A stretch of DNA of 5,696 nucleotides, from the IMG/VR virus record IMGVR_UViG_2706794691_000016. One strand, 5' to 3'. The first letter of the stretch is position 1. Every line of letters starts with the position of its first letter. This document shows positions 1 through 5,696 of this stretch, in pieces. The notes beneath the pieces were generated by a model. That model was not told the origin of the DNA. It did not search any database and saw only the letters and a program-made list of their open reading frames with translations. Both the position numbers and the translations under genes were made by a program. Origin of the DNA: a virus. Its lineage: Duplodnaviria > Heunggongvirae > Uroviricota > Caudoviricetes.

Positions 1-122
1 CAGAATGCATAAACTAAAAGTAAAACAAATAGTTATACGAAAAACAACCATATTTATTCTATCTTCTCCTCTAATCAACATATCAATTATGTGTTTCATA
101 ACAGCTTGACATAACCCTCCAA

Positions 123-145
123 AAGATGCATTTTTAATGCATGTT
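123..145 (+). promoter_or_regulatory. Putative NsrR-type operator: AAGATGCATTT-t-TAATGCATGTT, an 11-1-11 imperfect inverted repeat, just upstream of the DUF1971 gene
   Basis: Seen in sequence: two ATGCAT cores in inverted-repeat context at 123-133 and 135-145. A TTGACA -35-like hexamer lies at 106-111. From memory the NsrR consensus is AAnATGCATTT-n-AAATGCATnTT and E. coli yeaR is in the NsrR regulon. Not verified by scoring. Confidence 0.45.
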
Positions 146-160
146 TTGGAGGAGGTGGTT

Positions 161-577
161 ATGACACACAAGAGAATTCCTAAAGATTGGGTAATCAAAC
201 GCTCAACTCCGTTCTTCACAAAAGAGAACGTACCTTCAGCGTTATTAACACATCATAATACAGCAGCAGGTGTTTTTGGGCAGTTGTGCGTAATGGAAGG
301 CACTGTAACATATTATGGTTTNNNNNNNNNNNNNNNNNNNNNNNNNNNNNNNNNNNNNNNNNNNNNNNNNNNNNNNNNNNNNNNNNNNNNNNNNNNNNNN
401 NNNNNNNNNNNNNNNNNNNNNNNNNNNNNNNNNNNNNNNNNNNNNNNNNNNNNNNNNNNNNNNNNNNNNNNNNNNNNNNNNNNNNNNNNNNNNNNNNNNN
501 NNNNNNNNNNNNNNNNNNNNNNNNNNNNNNNNNNNNNNNNNNNNNNNNNNNNNNNNNNNNNNNNNNNNNNNTTGTAA
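161..577 (+). CDS. DUF1971 domain protein (YeaR-like, tellurite-resistance-related family)
   Basis: ATG at 161 preceded by GGAGGAGG (148-155) with a 5-nt spacer. Visible N-terminus MTHKRIPKDWVIKRSTPFFTKENVPSALLTHHNTAAGVFGQLCVMEGTVTYYG resembles E. coli YeaR as I recall it (TRSTPFw, GV.. L.VM.G.V.Y.GY pattern). The 3' end lies in or just after the 322-571 mask; 577 is the first visible in-frame stop, so the end is uncertain. The ORF-track start at 137 is rejected because it lacks an RBS and sits inside the operator. Confidence 0.6.
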   Translation: MTHKRIPKDWVIKRSTPFFTKENVPSALLTHHNTAAGVFGQLCVMEGTVTYYGXXXXXXXXXXXXXXXXXXXXXXXXXXXXXXXXXXXXXXXXXXXXXXXXXXXXXXXXXXXXXXXXXXXXXXXXXXXXXXXXXXXXL

Positions 578-689
578 ATATATTGGTTCTACATTGACAG
601 GAGACTTCAACCATAAGAAGTAATCTGAATACTTGAGCAATAAATTTACTTAAGATTAATGAGCGCACCTTGCCGGACAAAGATAAACC

Positions 690-708
690 AAGGTAACACC
701 TTTTTTCT
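690..708 (+). terminator. Weak candidate intrinsic terminator: AAGGT-aac-ACCTT hairpin followed by TTTTcT
   Basis: 5-bp stem, 3-nt loop, then a T-tract, downstream of the DUF1971 gene. The stem is short and AT-rich, so this is weak. Confidence 0.2.
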
Positions 709-1127
709 AGCCAGTATGTAATCAATCAGAAAGCCGCTCCATAAGAACAACAGCAAGACAATAAATTGCCATTACAGCCGCAATAGCCAGCGCACATTTG
801 AGAACCAGCACGACAACCCCCTGTATTAGACGCACACCAGTCCTGATAAATATGAGGCTGTCTCGTCAGTGATTCAATACAACTATTGGGTATAGTTTCT
901 GTGATTTTATTCTGTAGAAATGGAACACAACAACCAGTCACCACCAGCACTTCCTTAAATGCTCTAAGTCAGAAACAAGCCAACATTTTAGTCCGCTTTG
1001 AGCGATCTGCAGACATTGCTAGCAGCCTTCTGTGTGAATTCTCAGGGAGCAGGTCGGCATAGCATCACGTTGAGGCTCTTACCCTACTTGTTCACACCAA
1101 CCCTAACTCCACAGACTGATTCATAAA

Positions 1128-2024
1128 TTAGTAATCTGCGTGTTTCGCACTTTTCAGAAATGCTTTCATATTTTCATTAGGTCGCTCAATTTCGAAGTTA
1201 CTTCCATATAACTCTTGTAATTTTGGCCATAACTTACTTAATAACCCTCTCCTGCGATAAAATGGATGTATCCAAACGGTAGATAGGTACGGAGAATTTG
1301 CATTTGAATTGTTTATTGTGACCAGCCCAACTAAACATTGTCGATAACCACTATTATCCATTGATTGTATTTCTTCGACGAATGGATACGCGATTACATC
1401 AGTCCAACCATGATCGGTTGTATCCCATTGCATTCCGTCATGACATTCCTTCGACTGATAGCGGCGTAAAGCTACACACGCGAGCTTTTGCCAATCTGGA
1501 GAATTAATTGTGATCTCTTCATCGTATGACGCGCCTATTGGAGCGGGTATTGGTCTGATTAATCCAGCATGGCATTCATCATAGAACTTCATGNNNNNNN
1601 NNNNNNNNNNNNNNNNNNNNNNNNNNNNNNNNNNNNNNNNNNNNNNNNNNNNNNNNNNNNNNNNNNNNNNNNNNNNNNNNNNNNNNNNNNNNNNNNNNNN
1701 NNNNNNNNNNNNNNNNNNNNNNNNTCTTAAGAGTTTAATTAAGTTAATACAAGCTTCTTCACTAGTCTTGCCGTTGATGCGAAGTATGTTAGGACTAAAG
1801 TAATATTCATCCATATCAGGGAATGCAGCTTCGCAAAACTCCTGTACATAATTTAGCACCTGGATTCTACAGAGATCATCATAGCTGGTAATAACTAAGG
1901 GGGTATCTTCATTACTATTATGATTATCAATAATGCAATCTATAGCGAGACTTACTGCTTTGCGTATCACTTCAGTTGAATCTAACGACTCTAAAAATTT
2001 TGTCTTTCGTGTGCGAATATCCAT
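1128..2024 (-). CDS. Hypothetical protein P3 (298 aa) with a GNAT-acetyltransferase-like C-terminal region and an unrecognised N-terminal region
   Basis: Single open frame on both sides of the 1594-1724 mask. ATG at 2024-2022 with an AGGT SD-like element 4 nt upstream, starting 15 nt after the P2 stop. C-terminus ...VWIHPFYRRRGLLSKLW...NENMKAFLKSAKH resembles GNAT motif A and the C-terminal N..A..FY.K motif by eye only. Two ECH-G motifs (DECHAG, KECHDG) about 43 residues apart. Confidence 0.7.
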   Translation of the reverse strand: MDIRTRKTKFLESLDSTEVIRKAVSLAIDCIIDNHNSNEDTPLVITSYDDLCRIQVLNYVQEFCEAAFPDMDEYYFSPNILRINGKTSEEACINLIKLLRXXXXXXXXXXXXXXXXXXXXXXXXXXXXXXXXXXXXXXXXXXXXMKFYDECHAGLIRPIPAPIGASYDEEITINSPDWQKLACVALRRYQSKECHDGMQWDTTDHGWTDVIAYPFVEEIQSMDNSGYRQCLVGLVTINNSNANSPYLSTVWIHPFYRRRGLLSKLWPKLQELYGSNFEIERPNENMKAFLKSAKHADY

Positions 2025-2039
2025 GTATGACCTGCGCTA

Positions 2040-2602
2040 TTAAAATTCATGAATGAACGGTTTGTCATCTGGTTGCAAAATGGTGGTTTTATTCGTTGCT
2101 ACATTTAAACTGTTGTAGAGCATAATTGCCAGGTTCGATGCATTTTCAATCAGCGTTTCAAGATCCTGGTCTGTAATCACTACGAGGTTCCCTTCTTTAT
2201 CCTTTCCACCACGATGCACTAAGTGATTTCGATTGAGGGTTGCCAATTCAATAGCTTCTATCGGACAGTCTTTTTGTACTTTTATATCGAATGTAGCTTC
2301 ATAGCGGTCGATTACCTTTTTAGTGCTATGCCAGCTTGCACTGATCAAGTGTTCCTTGATTGACCTGATTAGCTCTCCCCTAATTTTCTCGATGGGTTCA
2401 CCCTTGAAAGGCAACGCAGCAATATCTTTGCTTACTTTAAATTCAGTCTTACCTTTTTCTATACAATTGGCTATGTAGACATCATCTTTCTCTATAGAAT
2501 TAATGAATAGCTCAACATAAAGCGTTTCCAAAGCTGTAATAACATTCGTGTAGAGCAAACTAAGCAAGTGGTTTTTTTGCTGTTGTTCAGTTTTATCTTT
2601 TG
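2040..2602 (-). CDS. Hypothetical protein P2, C-terminal 186 aa visible, containing a candidate HEPN-type Rx4H motif (RNHLVH, codons at 2214-2231)
   Basis: 186-codon open frame in AT-rich DNA ending at TAA 2040-2042; the N-terminus is inside the 2603-2852 mask. Motif context ...ELATLNRNHLVHRGG... fits the R-[N]-x3-H signature of HEPN RNases. The family call is a motif-level inference only. Confidence 0.65.
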
Positions 2603-2852
2603 NNNNNNNNNNNNNNNNNNNNNNNNNNNNNNNNNNNNNNNNNNNNNNNNNNNNNNNNNNNNNNNNNNNNNNNNNNNNNNNNNNNNNNNNNNNNNNNNNN
2701 NNNNNNNNNNNNNNNNNNNNNNNNNNNNNNNNNNNNNNNNNNNNNNNNNNNNNNNNNNNNNNNNNNNNNNNNNNNNNNNNNNNNNNNNNNNNNNNNNNNN
2801 NNNNNNNNNNNNNNNNNNNNNNNNNNNNNNNNNNNNNNNNNNNNNNNNNNNN

Positions 2853-3072
2853 CATAGCCACCTTCTCTACTTTCATACGGACAAGCATTTGCCGGATCTT
2901 CAAAGTTTTCAAAGAACCAGTTTTTCATTACTTCGAGTTGATCTTTTTTGCTTATGTATTTTAAAGATTTTAGTGGAACTTTCTTTCCATTAACCTCGAA
3001 AACAATTTTCACGATGTAACGCTCCCTTGTATCAATTGCGCAACTATTATACCACAGCGAAATACAGGGCAT
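2853..3072 (-). CDS. Hypothetical small protein P1 (N-terminal 73 aa visible; 3' end within or just past the 2603-2852 mask)
   Basis: ATG at 3072-3070 preceded by AAGGAGG with a 6-nt spacer. Translation MPCISLWYNSCAIDTRERYIVKIVFEVNGKKVPLKSLKYISKKDQLEVMKNWFFENFEDPANACPYESREGGY. Under a length-preserving mask it is in a different frame from P2, so it is either a separate upstream gene or there is a frameshift. The first visible in-frame stop is at 2593. Confidence 0.5.
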
Positions 3073-3110
3073 AACCTGCCTCCTTAAACTAACATACCAT
3101 GAGCCAGCAA

Positions 3111-3136
3111 TGTCCGCTATTGGCACAAAGCGGACA
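3111..3136 (-). promoter_or_regulatory. Perfect 8-bp inverted repeat TGTCCGCT-N10-AGCGGACA upstream of P1, next to a TTGACA hexamer on the coding strand; candidate operator or promoter element
   Basis: Seen in sequence in the 137-nt gap between the gene Y stop (3211) and the P1 start (3072). The function is inferred. Confidence 0.25.
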
Positions 3137-3210
3137 ACCACGCTAGCTCTCCCCTGTGCCAGAAAAATGTCAATTTACATATGAACTAATGCTCTTTGAT
3201 CTAGTAACGT

Positions 3211-3627
3211 CTATAAATACCGAAGATTTCCTTGATAAAATGCCAGTACACGTTTCATAACTTCACTCTTCCGGCACTCGCGACAGATTATGTTCTGACG
3301 CCTGTCATAGCGGCGTATTTCTCCGTCTGGTAATGACCAGATAAGGTCAGGATCAACCACAACCGTTTTTTTCACCTTTGCCCTGGATAGTTTTTTGCGG
3401 GCGTTTTTCCAATCCTTACGAGCCTGTTCAGACGGGAATAACCCATAGCCAGAGTTGTATACATCGCCACTGGCAACCAACTCTCTGGCAAGAATGCTCA
3501 TCAGATATCTTGTCGCACCTGTCTTGGCCTCCAGTTGCCTTAACGTCTCGCGCCCACTCTGGCGTACCAACTCAACAACCTGCTCCTTAATTTTTTCACG
3601 CTCTTCCTGTGTAAAAACTTTTGCCAT
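3211..3627 (-). CDS. Hypothetical prophage protein Y (138 aa) with a possible helix-turn-helix region and a basic C-terminal half
   Basis: ATG at 3627-3625 with GGAGG 5 nt upstream; stop TAG at 3213-3211. Translation MAKVFTQEEREKIKEQVVELVRQSGRETLRQLEAKTGATRYLMSILARELVASGDV... Lies immediately downstream of gene X in the replication-module operon. No family recognised. Confidence 0.65.
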   Translation of the reverse strand: MAKVFTQEEREKIKEQVVELVRQSGRETLRQLEAKTGATRYLMSILARELVASGDVYNSGYGLFPSEQARKDWKNARKKLSRAKVKKTVVVDPDLIWSLPDGEIRRYDRRQNIICRECRKSEVMKRVLAFYQGNLRYL

Positions 3628-3642
3628 AAGCGCCTCCGGCAA

Positions 3643-4203
3643 TCACTTTTCCGACACAATACGACTGGAGGAATCGACAATCTGTCGGACAATATCCCGG
3701 TGCTTGTTCAGCTCCCGCAGCGCGGCGCAGACTCGCTCCCACTTCTGGACATGATTTTTCGCCCGACGCAGTTCGCGGTTTGCCATATGCAGCGATGGTA
3801 AAACTAGGTCATCCGCTTGCGTTTCAGTAAACGATGGCAGCGACTGCACAATGTCCGCCACAGTTTCTGTTTTAATATCTTCCTGTGTTGCCGCTTCCTG
3901 TACTGGTAACGCAACACCGGCTGGCTGAGGAANNNNNNNNNNNNNNNNNNNNNNNNNNNNNNNNNNNNNNNNNNNNNNNNNNNNNNNNNNNNNNNNNNNN
4001 NNNNNNNNNNNNNNNNNNNNNNNNNNNNNNNNNNNNNNNNNNNNNNNNNNNNNNNNNNNNNNNNNNNNNNNNNNNNNNNNNNNNNNNNNNNNNNNNNNNN
4101 NNNNNNNNNNNNNNNNNNNNNNNNNNNNNNNNNNNNNNNNNNNNNNNNNNNNNNNNNNNNNNNNNNNNNNNNNNNNNNNNNNTTCCGGCAGTTCTGCCTG
4201 CAT
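3643..4203 (-). CDS. Hypothetical prophage protein X (C-terminal 96 aa visible; start at or upstream of 4203)
   Basis: Open frame ending at TGA 3645-3643, 15 nt before the gene Y start. Visible C-terminus ...LHMANRELRRAKNHVQKWERVCAALRELNKHRDIVRQIVDSSSRIVSEK. An ATG (MQAELPE) sits at 4203-4201 but the frame stays open upstream into the mask, so the true start is unknown. Confidence 0.55.
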   Translation of the reverse strand: MQAELPEXXXXXXXXXXXXXXXXXXXXXXXXXXXXXXXXXXXXXXXXXXXXXXXXXXXXXXXXXXXXXXXXXXXXXXXXXXXXXXXXXXXXPQPAGVALPVQEAATQEDIKTETVADIVQSLPSFTETQADDLVLPSLHMANRELRRAKNHVQKWERVCAALRELNKHRDIVRQIVDSSSRIVSEK

Positions 4204-4476
4204 TGGCTGTTCCTGCTGAACGTNNNNNNNNNNNNNNNNNNNNNNNNNNNNNNNNNNNNNNNNNNNNNNNNNNNNNNNNNNNNNNNNNNNNNNNNNNNNN
4301 NNNNNNNNNNNNNNNNNNNNNNNNNNNNNNNNNNNNNNNNNNNNNNNNNNNNNNNNNNNNNNNNNNNNNNNNNNNNNNNNNNNNNNNNNNNNNNNNNNNN
4401 NNNNNNNNNNNNNNNNNNNNNNNNNNNNNNNNNNNNNNNNNNNNNNNNNNNNNNNNNNNNNNNNNNNNNNNNNAAT

Positions 4477-5208
4477 TCACCCATCGNNNNNNNNNNNNNN
4501 NNNNNNNNNNNNNNNNNNNNNNNNNNNNNNNNNNNNNNNNNNNNNNNNNNNNNNNNNNNNNNNNNNNNNNNNNNNNNNNNNNNNNNNNNNNNNNNNNNNN
4601 NNNNNNNNNNNNNNNNNNNNNNNNNNNNNNNNNNNNNNNNNNNNNNNNNNNNNNNNNNNNNNNNNNNNNNNNNNNNNNNNNNNNNNNNNNNNNNNNNNNN
4701 NNNNNNNNNNNNNNNNNNNNNNNNNNNNNNNNNNNNNNNNGATAGCTGCCGCTAAGTGATTCTTCCCGGTACCAGGTTTTCCGCTGAACGCAAAATTTGT
4801 ACACCCGGTCATCAGTTCATCGGCGATGGATTTCGCCTGGCTTAACGCGTATCGCTGGCCGTCGTTCTGCACCTGGTAATTCGCAAACGAGCATTTACGG
4901 TGCAACGGCTGGATGCCTGAGCGATTCAGAATTTTTTCCACCCGCAACTGGCGATTNNNNNNNNNNNNNNNNNNNNNNNNNNNNNNNNNNNNNNNNNNNN
5001 NNNNNNNNNNNNNNNNNNNNNNNNNNNNNNNNNNNNNNNNNNNNNNNNNNNNNNNNNNNNNNNNNNNNNNNNNNNNNNNNNNNNNNNNNNNNNNNNNNNN
5101 NNNNNNNNNNNNNNNNNNNNNNNNNNNNNNNNNNNNNNNNNNNNNNNNNNNNNNNNNNNNNNNNNNNNNNNNNNNNNNNNNNNNNNNNNNNNNNNNNNNN
5201 NNNNNNNN
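4477..5208 (-). CDS. DnaC-like (IstB/AAA+) replicative helicase loader of a prophage replication module
   Basis: Visible segment 4741-4956 translates to NRQLRVEKILNRSGIQPLHRKCSFANYQVQNDGQRYALSQAKSIADELMTGCTNFAFSGKPGTGKNHLAAAI. This closely parallels E. coli DnaC as I recall it (FNRSGIRPLHQNCSFENYRV...FIFSGKPGTGKNHLAAAI), including the Walker A motif. Both ends are masked: 4477 is the first visible in-frame stop, which would make the C-terminus about 38 aa shorter than E. coli DnaC, and the start is somewhere in 4957-5208. Confidence 0.75.
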   Translation of the reverse strand, partial: XXXXXXXXXXXXXXXXXXXXXXXXXXXXXXXXXXXXXXXXXXXXXXXXXXXXXXXXXXXXXXXXXXXXXXXXXXXXXXXXXXXXNRQLRVEKILNRSGIQPLHRKCSFANYQVQNDGQRYALSQAKSIADELMTGCTNFAFSGKPGTGKNHLAAAIXXXXXXXXXXXXXXXXXXXXXXXXXXXXXXXXXXXXXXXXXXXXXXXXXXXXXXXXXXXXXXXXXXXXXXXXXXXXXXXXXXXXXDG

Positions 5209-5601
5209 CAATAGCCTCCGGCTCGAATTTTTTAGACGCTCGTTTTTGGCGAGGGGGAGATCAGTATTTAGATCTTCCTCTTCCTCTTCCTCTGGTAACG
5301 CTTTTTGATCCGTTTGTGTAACGCTGGCAGCGTTACCTTTTCGTTTCAGTTCGCGTATTTTTGTTACTCGCTCGTTTGTAACCGCCCGTTTTTTTTAGAG
5401 CTTTTTCCGTTATGACGTTCAAAGTTAGGTAGAGAAAGCCCTCCGTCATTTTCGACCAGCCATCCAACCTGAATTAACGCATCAGCAAAACCAGACATAA
5501 AAGTGATGCGATCTATTGCACTTTTTGTAACGCCGCGAGCGTTACAATCTGCATTACCGTCTATCATTTGTTGATCCGCCCATGCCCAGAAGCGAATAAC
5601 C
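5209..5601 (-). pseudogene. Lambda O-like replication initiator gene, 5'-truncated by an IS insertion and frameshifted at an A8 tract
   Basis: Frame 0 (5601-5367) reads VIRFWAWADQQMIDGNADCNARGVTKSAIDRITFMSGFADALIQVGWLVENDGGLSLPNFERHNGKSSKK and stops at 5366-5364. The -1 frame opens inside the A8 tract (plus-strand T8 at 5389-5396) and runs open into the mask as KKRAVTNERVTKIRELKRKGNAASVTQTDQKALPEEEEEEDLNTDLPLAKNERLKNSSRRLL with no start codon. The ...QGG..P...NEGKSPKTR region of lambda O, as I recall it, aligns across the shift. Sits immediately upstream of the DnaC-like gene. Confidence 0.55.
5295..5382. repeat. Iteron-like repeats inside the O-like gene (candidate prophage origin): GTAACGCT at 5295-5302, palindrome GTAACGCT-GGC-AGCGTTAC at 5318-5336, GTTAC at 5363-5367, GTAAC at 5378-5382, interspersed CGTTT(G) motifs
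   Basis: Repeats seen directly in the sequence. By analogy to lambda, where ori lies within gene O and consists of dyad-symmetric iterons next to an AT-rich tract; here the T8/A8 tract and flanking AT-rich bases are adjacent. Confidence 0.35.
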
Positions 5602-5696
5602 TGAGGTAGCCTGAGTTTAACGGACACTCCTTCCTGAAATAGAATGGCATCAGAAGGAGCTAATAATGAGCAGAAAAACCCAACGTTACTCTAAAG
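5602..5696 (+). mobile_element. Left end of an IS3-family insertion sequence (IS600-like by recollection), truncated by the window edge
   Basis: Sequence beginning TGAGGTAGCCTGAGTTTAACGGACAC (IS3-family ends start with TG), followed by a strong SD (AAGGAG, 5654-5659) and an ATG at 5666 encoding MSRKTQRYSK, which matches my memory of the IS600 OrfA N-terminus. The O-like gene is cut off at this junction. Only about 95 bp is visible and the right end is absent, so the exact boundary and identity are unconfirmed. Confidence 0.5.
5666..5696 (+). CDS. IS3-family transposase OrfA, first 10 codons only (MSRKTQRYSK), continues beyond the window
   Basis: ATG at 5666 with AAGGAG and a 6-nt spacer. N-terminal peptide consistent with IS3-family OrfA (IS600-like) from memory. 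Confidence 0.45.
   Translation, partial: MSRKTQRYSK

Follow-up and report, generated by a model that had tools for sequence, protein, structure and literature searches.

Dyad repeats within YdaU-family initiator genes as a candidate replication origin of Rac-like lambdoid prophages

We analyzed the repeats in 5,696 nucleotides of DNA from a virus of the Caudoviricetes (IMG/VR record IMGVR_UViG_2706794691_000016), a stretch that is called here, at its full length, the window. These repeats, based on the heptamer GTAACGC, are probably the sites recognized by an initiator whose own gene contains them, and together they would constitute the origin of a Rac-like lambdoid prophage; we give this reading a probability of about 0.62. 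The sites were observed directly, as were their positions, their conservation and their co-variation with the initiator N-domain. Since such co-variation of sites and N-domain is typical of lambdoid origins, a lambda-like origin appeared to be the best reading of the data. Origins inside initiator genes are textbook knowledge for lambdoid phages. We found no sequence-level description of the origin of this initiator type in the literature on oriJ, YdaU, DUF1376 and epsilon15 iterons; what is new, and may deserve follow-up, is a candidate origin for a Pfam-less initiator family and its unusual split, mainly palindromic layout over ~400 bp.

Repeats and the initiator-gene remnant in the window

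The features of the window that are considered in this analysis are as follows:

4421-5103, minus strand (approximate coordinates, both ends in masked sequence): ydaV, a DnaC/IstB-like helicase loader gene
5209-5600, minus strand: pseudogene remnant of a Rac-type YdaU-family initiator gene, with 96-97% DNA identity to intact E. coli genes
5258-5259: junction of a 10-bp deletion between TCCCCCT direct repeats, the second frameshift
5273-5293: tract GAGGAAGAGGAAGAGGAAGA, polypurine on the coding strand and polypyrimidine on the plus strand, a candidate DNA-unwinding region
5295-5301: lone half-site (GCGTTAC on the coding strand) within the block CAAAAAGCGTTACCAGAGGAAGAG
5318-5336: dyad D2, GTAACGC-tggca-GCGTTAC, in the linker-coding part, at +368 of the intact gene
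5363-5385: two degenerate half-sites, GTTACTCG and GTAACCGC
5389-5396: T8 run with a +2 frameshift (A8 on the coding strand, compared with A6 in intact genes)
5527-5545: dyad D1, GTAACGC-cgcga-GCGTTAC, in the N-domain-coding part, at +161 of the intact gene
5551-5557: degenerate extra half-site GCATTAC (GTAATGC on the coding strand), 12 nt from D1
5601-5696, plus strand: left end of IS600 (IS3 family), with 100% identity to IS600 copies on Shigella (virulence) plasmids

Analysis of both strands of the window revealed seven occurrences of GTAACGC, compared with 0.36 expected (0 of 200 shuffles reached seven), and five of the seven fell within 5295-5545. The original prediction had placed motifs of this type at 5295, 5318-5336, 5363 and 5378, and these positions were borne out by direct reading of the sequence: GTAACGC(T) is present at 5295 and 5318 with its reverse complement at 5330, the copy at 5378 (GTAACCGC) is a half-site plus one additional base, and the copy at 5363 (GTTACTCG) is degenerate, the E. 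coli relatives having GTAACTCG on the same strand and several genera CGCGTTACA on the coding strand. The dyad at 5318-5336 had been described as having perfect 8-bp arms; the dyad was confirmed, with arms of 9 nt in the window (GTAACGCTG-c-CAGCGTTAC), whereas the arms conserved throughout the family are 7 nt with a 5-nt spacer. Similarly, the interval originally proposed (5290-5400) does contain repeats but excludes the second perfect dyad, D1, which in the window encodes C-N-A-R-G-V-T. At the position equivalent to 5551-5557, most relatives have GGT AAC GCA (GGT in 13 of 14, AAC in 14 of 15), and the block around the lone half-site was near-invariant as DNA. The interspersed CGTTT motifs that had been reported are indeed present and enriched, with five of the 11 copies on the plus strand of the full window located in 5241-5391, although this enrichment is partly due to Lys-Arg codons (AAA CGN) on the coding strand.

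Two further exact copies of GTAACGC were found outside ydaU, at 3016-3022 and 3906-3912. Both are single and form no dyad; one is close to where a minus-strand ORF begins, the other within the DUF1627 gene, with an equivalent at 4443 of an intact E. coli locus (L001). These single half-sites may have arisen by chance.

A marked AT-rich block beside the repeats was not found, as 5338-5400 is 60% A+T and the window mean is 57.8%. Thus, the AT-rich tract of the original prediction is weak, and 5389-5396 is a T homopolymer (T8) with two gained bases; in E. coli-type copies, too, the DNA next to the repeats is only 58-60% A+T. The tract at 5273-5293 is located on the opposite side of the repeats from 5338-5400, directly after the last half-site. 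It was the least stable 40-bp duplex between -300 and +1000 in five of seven family loci, and the second or third least stable in the other two. In eight loci, its purine content was 62-87%. Its A+T content was only 51-73%, and 60% in the window. A search for DnaA boxes between -400 and +1000, with at most one mismatch, yielded none except two far-upstream, chance-like matches.

All genes around the repeats are on the minus strand of the window. The initiator remnant comprises codons ~35-165 of a 262-aa protein and runs on into the masked block 4957-5208. Intact E. coli matches of 5209-5600 are annotated as 'phage replication initiator YdaU family protein', and this segment showed 91% identity to ydaU of 'Escherichia phage Rac' (MN652886). 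Homology to intact ydaU ends at 5600, the first 103 nt of the gene having been lost through insertion of IS600, whose orfA starts at 5666. The insertion parts the upstream dyad D0 from the remaining sites, and D0 is absent from the window. The ORF beginning with 'MSVKLRLPQ...' does not have a genuine start, because this start lies within IS600. The +2 frameshift at the T8 run stops the reading frame at 5364, and the remnant is broken across three reading frames. Judged from its sequence, this copy of the initiator gene is a dead pseudogene relic. With its initiator destroyed by IS600, frameshift and deletion, the window copy can hardly fire alone; neither an intact initiator frame nor the complete set of sites was found in the window, and the surviving sites could act only with an intact initiator of the same specificity in trans. 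Two of the point changes of the window recur in L003, a copy from Shigella flexneri, and the change in the 5363 half-site is shared with an S. flexneri copy as well; together with the IS600 end, this makes a genome of the Shigella lineage the probable source. All that the window itself records is how a replication module of a prophage decayed in a Shigella-like genome.

The masked blocks 4957-5208 and 4487-4740 were 185 nt and 64 nt shorter, respectively, than their counterparts in L001, and positions 1-4956 of the window aligned to 5113 nt of E. coli JP538. These length gaps reflect either further out-of-frame deletions in ydaU and ydaV or masks that do not preserve length.

Initiator family, conservation and co-variation of the sites

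The intact initiator gene is 789 nt long. Its product (P0001) matched PHROG 2509 'replication initiation protein' with an E-value of 2.2e-89 over residues 1-262, and PHROG 678 'O-like' at residues 77-236 only. No Pfam family was detected for it even at E <= 1, NCBIfam gave only a sub-threshold match to the DnaT tail, and a sequence search of PDB gave no match below E 0.36. Structural comparison with PDB by Foldseek yielded no significant match (E >= 0.4), the top matches being winged-helix proteins, and homology to the Rep_3/RepA families was not detected; the N-domain is predicted to be a winged helix. The gene had originally been called O-like, which should be abandoned in the sense of a lambda O homologue: the DNA-binding part is not homologous to that of O, and there is no match to Phage_rep_O or any other Pfam family at E <= 1. 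In addition, a common initiator variant of 374-380 aa (P0011-P0058) has a ~115-aa insertion right after the acidic linker (alignment columns 170-305).

The unmasked parts of ydaV translate to NRQLRVEKILNRSGIQ...GKPGTGKNHLAAAI, and its intact homologue matched IstB_IS21 at 5e-20 and Bac_DnaA at 1e-8. In L001, ydaV starts 7 nt past ydaU, which places the loader directly downstream of the initiator. The Rac-type gene order ydaT, ydaU, ydaV, DUF1627, DUF977 was found in L001, L002 and JP538 (L259), and the window matches it. Between the DUF977 and DUF1971 genes of the window are two hypothetical genes (1128-2024 and 2040-2912, minus strand), which are intact in JP538 (2620-3621 and 3637-4599). PADLOC gave no match for either of them, and the Pfam matches of the pair were only sub-threshold (GNAT acetyltransferase, E 9e-4; HEPN/RES N-terminal domain, E 2e-4); the two genes might form a defence pair or be cargo of the prophage. 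At its left end (161 to ~500, plus strand), the window contains a partly masked DUF1971 (TehB/YeaR-like) gene, which is annotated as DUF1971 in the E. coli relatives.

In the intact locus L001, we found three perfect GTAACGC-N5-GCGTTAC dyads: D0, D1 at +161 and D2 at +368. D0 is non-coding; it precedes the ATG by 13-32 nt and lies immediately next to the Shine-Dalgarno sequence. GTAACGC occurred nine times in this locus (1.04 expected), and six of these copies make up the three dyads. Conservation was assessed in 24 loci from at least 20 genera, including Escherichia, Mixta, Erwinia, Yersinia, Serratia, Pantoea, Pectobacterium and Novipirellula as well as an Ignavibacteriae contig, down to ~42% protein identity. 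The arms were identical or one base off in 22 of the 24 loci for D1 and in 21 for D2, D0 was present in 14, and the 5-nt spacers varied freely. D2 is flanked by two to four single half-sites, among them one within the CAAAAAGCGTTACCAGAGGAAGAG block in L001. One to three direct half-sites, up to two of them extra, precede D2 at a 12-bp pitch in the relatives, and the D1-D2 distances step through 207, 219, 231 and 243. Absence of the repeats from related phages with the same initiator had been named as evidence against the original prediction; when looked at, every relative with this N-domain was found to carry the repeats. Exactly the same GTAACGC-N5-GCGTTAC dyads were present in Novipirellula rosea (L020) and an Ignavibacteriae MAG (L021), which could be due to an exceptionally wide host range, to contamination or to wrong binning.

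YdaU of the K-12 Rac prophage has only its C-terminal 119 aa in common with the window type (85% identity, with homology from residue ~144/167 on), and its N-terminal 165 aa form an unrelated DUF1376 N-domain. The K-12 gene contains no GTAACGC; it has its own TGTTCAAACA repeats, five to six mostly direct copies located at +353 to +461, in the linker-coding part. In JP538, the downstream genes are 99.6% identical to those of the window, yet ydaU (6767-7624) is of the K-12 type with DUF1376, an indication of recombination within ydaU, with the junction where the acidic linker (DL[KN]TD) ends. Thus, it appears that the N-domain and its repeats move as one module. A scan of IMG/VR with the family alignment returned near-identical copies only, and distant phage homologues were then used as queries. 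Phages CP2, PAN70 and TL-2011b have kept GTAACGC-type dyads. The dyads were GTAGACG-N6-CGTCTAC at +154/+370 in the clade of Ralstonia phage Raharianne, GTCACG-N7-CGTGAC at +152/+359 in a Vibrio-phage clade, and GTCCGC-N7-GCGGAC at +66/+345 in the epsilon15 clade. Dyads of these distant clades were conserved within their own clade and had variable spacers, and their positions were mostly those of the GTAACGC clade. At least two perfect dyads with the same arms and more than 60 bp apart were detected in 68 of 114 distinct N-domains, compared with three of 1140 shuffled controls. The repeats therefore co-vary with the DNA-binding domain, with four half-site classes in four clades plus the DUF1376-associated repeat. 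Since the flanking genes differ among the phages that have these sites, the initiator is their sole constant partner.

Constraint on the DNA and alternative explanations

Codons overlapping the arms were represented by one synonymous codon in 96% of sequences, compared with 62% at other conserved residues (Mann-Whitney p = 1.3e-6), the site codons of this test having been picked after the motif had been seen. In D1, the codons AAC (14/14), AGC (12/12) and GTT (14/14) were frozen; the corresponding counts were 15/15 for AAC, 15/15 for GTT and 13/14 for ACA in D2, and 13/13 for CAA, 13/14 for AAA, 12/12 for GCG, 15/15 for TTA and 16/16 for CCA in the block of the lone half-site. Residues encoded by xGT/xGC codons varied among C, S, G and R, which matches the prediction of a fixed GT/GC. 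The lone half-site is read as A-L-P, unlike the frame used in the dyads, and translation passes through the D2 cluster in a different frame (VTQKVT..ALQ) in Samsonia (L012) and phage TL-2011b. As judged from these codon patterns, selection is on the DNA and not on the peptide. In an AlphaFold model of an intact homologue, pLDDT was below 50 for the segments encoded by D1 and by the D2 cluster, and thus the sites appear to sit where the protein tolerates them. If this reading is right, it shows a binding site carried within the coding sequence of disordered protein segments.

Chance occurrence of the repeats was rejected on the basis of the GTAACGC count in the window (7 vs. 0.36) and of the dyad pairs (68/114 N-domains vs. 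3/1140 shuffles). The repeats might also represent a peptide motif, G/C-N-A-x-S-V-T, of which the DNA symmetry is a by-product, and N-A and V-T are indeed conserved in the protein at two places. However, this is contradicted by the frozen synonymous positions, by the identical dyad D0 in upstream non-coding DNA, and by the reading of the same DNA in other frames (A-L-P, and V-T-Q-K-V-T in L012 and TL-2011b). Moreover, both segments are predicted to be disordered, and the variable residues are exactly those that a fixed GT/GC allows, so that a peptide repeat is extremely improbable. Somewhat more can be said for the palindromes being RNA hairpins in the ydaU mRNA that serve stability, processing or translational control: each dyad folds to 8-10 bp (-10.9 to -11.9 kcal/mol, z-scores -2.4 to -3.4), all dyads are on the transcribed strand, and both arms change together between clades with pairing kept. 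Within the GTAACGC clade, however, the arms are invariant and show no compensatory change, which points to sequence-specific recognition. Imperfect dyads with arm mismatches (L009, L017, L018, L019, CP2 and PAN70) had mostly non-wobble mismatches (A-C, G-G, C-A), only two of ~9 giving G-U, and hairpins leave no role for the unpaired half-sites at 12-bp pitch or the conserved lone half-site at 5295-5301. Based on the invariant arms, the non-wobble mismatches and the unpaired half-sites, RNA hairpins were rejected as quite improbable, though less certainly than chance or a peptide repeat.

On the other hand, the dyads could be operators only, at which the initiator or another phage protein represses or roadblocks transcription of ydaU-ydaV, with the origin at another place such as ydaV. 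Dimeric repressors classically bind perfect 7-N5-7 palindromes, only three full sites ~200 bp apart are typical of looping repressors, and published 'oriJ' primers map inside K-12 ydaV. In addition, D0 abuts the ribosome-binding site, and autoregulation may be the chief or even the sole function. However, two of the three sites are deep within coding sequence, and the D2 cluster has one to three extra direct half-sites at 12-bp pitch, at the position of the lambda iterons and adjoining the least stable DNA. K-12-type genes have their five to six mostly direct repeats at the same place, and the sites follow the initiator across unrelated neighbourhoods, in which no second protein is constant. 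Autoregulation is also compatible with origin function, as plasmid Rep proteins are generally known to do both. We therefore consider it unlikely that the dyads are operators and nothing else, although the operator reading may be partly true.

Proposed mechanism and comparison with known origins

By analogy with lambda O and its ori, we infer that an origin at these repeats would involve initiator binding, looping, melting and YdaV-DnaB loading. Dimers of the N-terminal winged-helix domain would bind D0, D1 (+161) and D2 (+368), plus the neighbouring half-sites in a ~12-bp register, and the bound initiators would form a higher-order complex like the lambda O-some. Looping is probably involved, because the dyads are ~200 bp apart. 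The resulting strain would open the adjoining low-stability purine/pyrimidine tract, and the C-terminal domain of the initiator would recruit the DnaC-like YdaV with host DnaB.

More speculatively, a widespread initiator family might use a split origin, with two or three identical 19-20-bp palindromes located 200-400 bp apart and looping needed for opening of the purine tract; we regard this generalization as possible but rather doubtful. It is just as tentative that one palindrome would either be encoded in a disordered loop of the DNA-binding domain or closely precede the gene, with the other in the linker, and that the family would be defined, with no greater confidence, by a Pfam-less winged-helix N-domain, a disordered linker and a DnaT/O-like C-domain. 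Members of the initiator family were found in lambdoid prophages, epsilon15, Xanthomonas phage CP2, and Ralstonia, Pseudomonas and Vibrio phages. If the split origin is true, the GTAACGC, GTCCGC, GTAGACG and GTCACG classes would be replication-specificity groups. If the repeats are an origin, this would provide a sequence-level origin for an unstudied initiator family of ~1,200 proteins (by word-indexed search) plus hundreds of viral contigs, and would permit the annotation of origins across numerous phages and prophages, among them relatives of Stx phages, epsilon15 and phages of plant pathogens. It would also offer ready-made specificity classes for tests of initiator-DNA recognition.

The core of the prediction of a lambda-like ori in the linker-coding region is strongly supported by comparison, in that the repeats are located in the linker part of their own initiator gene, next to DNA of low duplex stability, are conserved and co-vary with it, and have a loader gene downstream. 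As in lambda, the sites occur inside the gene of the initiator, where the sequences coding for its N- and C-domains adjoin (lambda iterons at +349 to +433 of O, the D2 cluster at +320 to +410), measure ~19 bp and have dyad symmetry. A purine-rich tract is directly downstream in both, that of lambda being rich in A+T and the one here a candidate for easy melting, and the helicase-loader gene comes next. Among relatives, both show site sequences that change together with the N-domain and a common C-terminal part. However, the layout departs from lambda in several respects. Lambda has four tandem iterons at a 20-24-bp pitch and no distant sites, whereas here one full dyad with flanking half-sites is accompanied by two identical dyads ~200 bp off, in the N-domain part and upstream; a cluster of at least three to four closely spaced tandem dyad iterons was not found, the linker holding a single full dyad. 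The A+T enrichment is weak, with no marked AT-rich block, no sequence similarity of the initiator N-domain to lambda O was detected, the loader is DnaC/IstB-like and not P-like, and the initiator gene of the window is destroyed.

An active origin of the Rac prophage, oriJ, is reported in PMC3945230 and PMC11014345, the latter citing Potrykus 2000. The 'framing oriJ' primers of De Paepe 2014 (PMC3945230 supplement) map inside K-12 ydaV (L025, 5241-5395), and this amplicon, the only one traced in the literature, is located ~0.7 kb downstream of the K-12 ydaU repeats. The K-12 Rac prophage resembles the loci studied here in prophage type, in the gene order from ydaT to DUF977, in the kind of ydaV, in the C-terminal 119 aa of the initiator (85% identical) and in the presence of repeats in the linker-coding part of ydaU. 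In contrast, its DUF1376 N-domain, its TGTTCAAACA repeats and the lack of any GTAACGC distinguish it, and the two do not have the same repeat sequence.

Finally, the repeats may be compared with those of iteron plasmids such as pPS10, F, R6K and P1, which likewise combine a winged-helix initiator with repeated sites, fold and binding being predicted in the present case. In both cases, inverted copies near the gene start could serve autoregulation and the others initiation. Plasmid iterons are direct repeats outside rep, whereas the sites described here are mainly palindromes within coding sequence.
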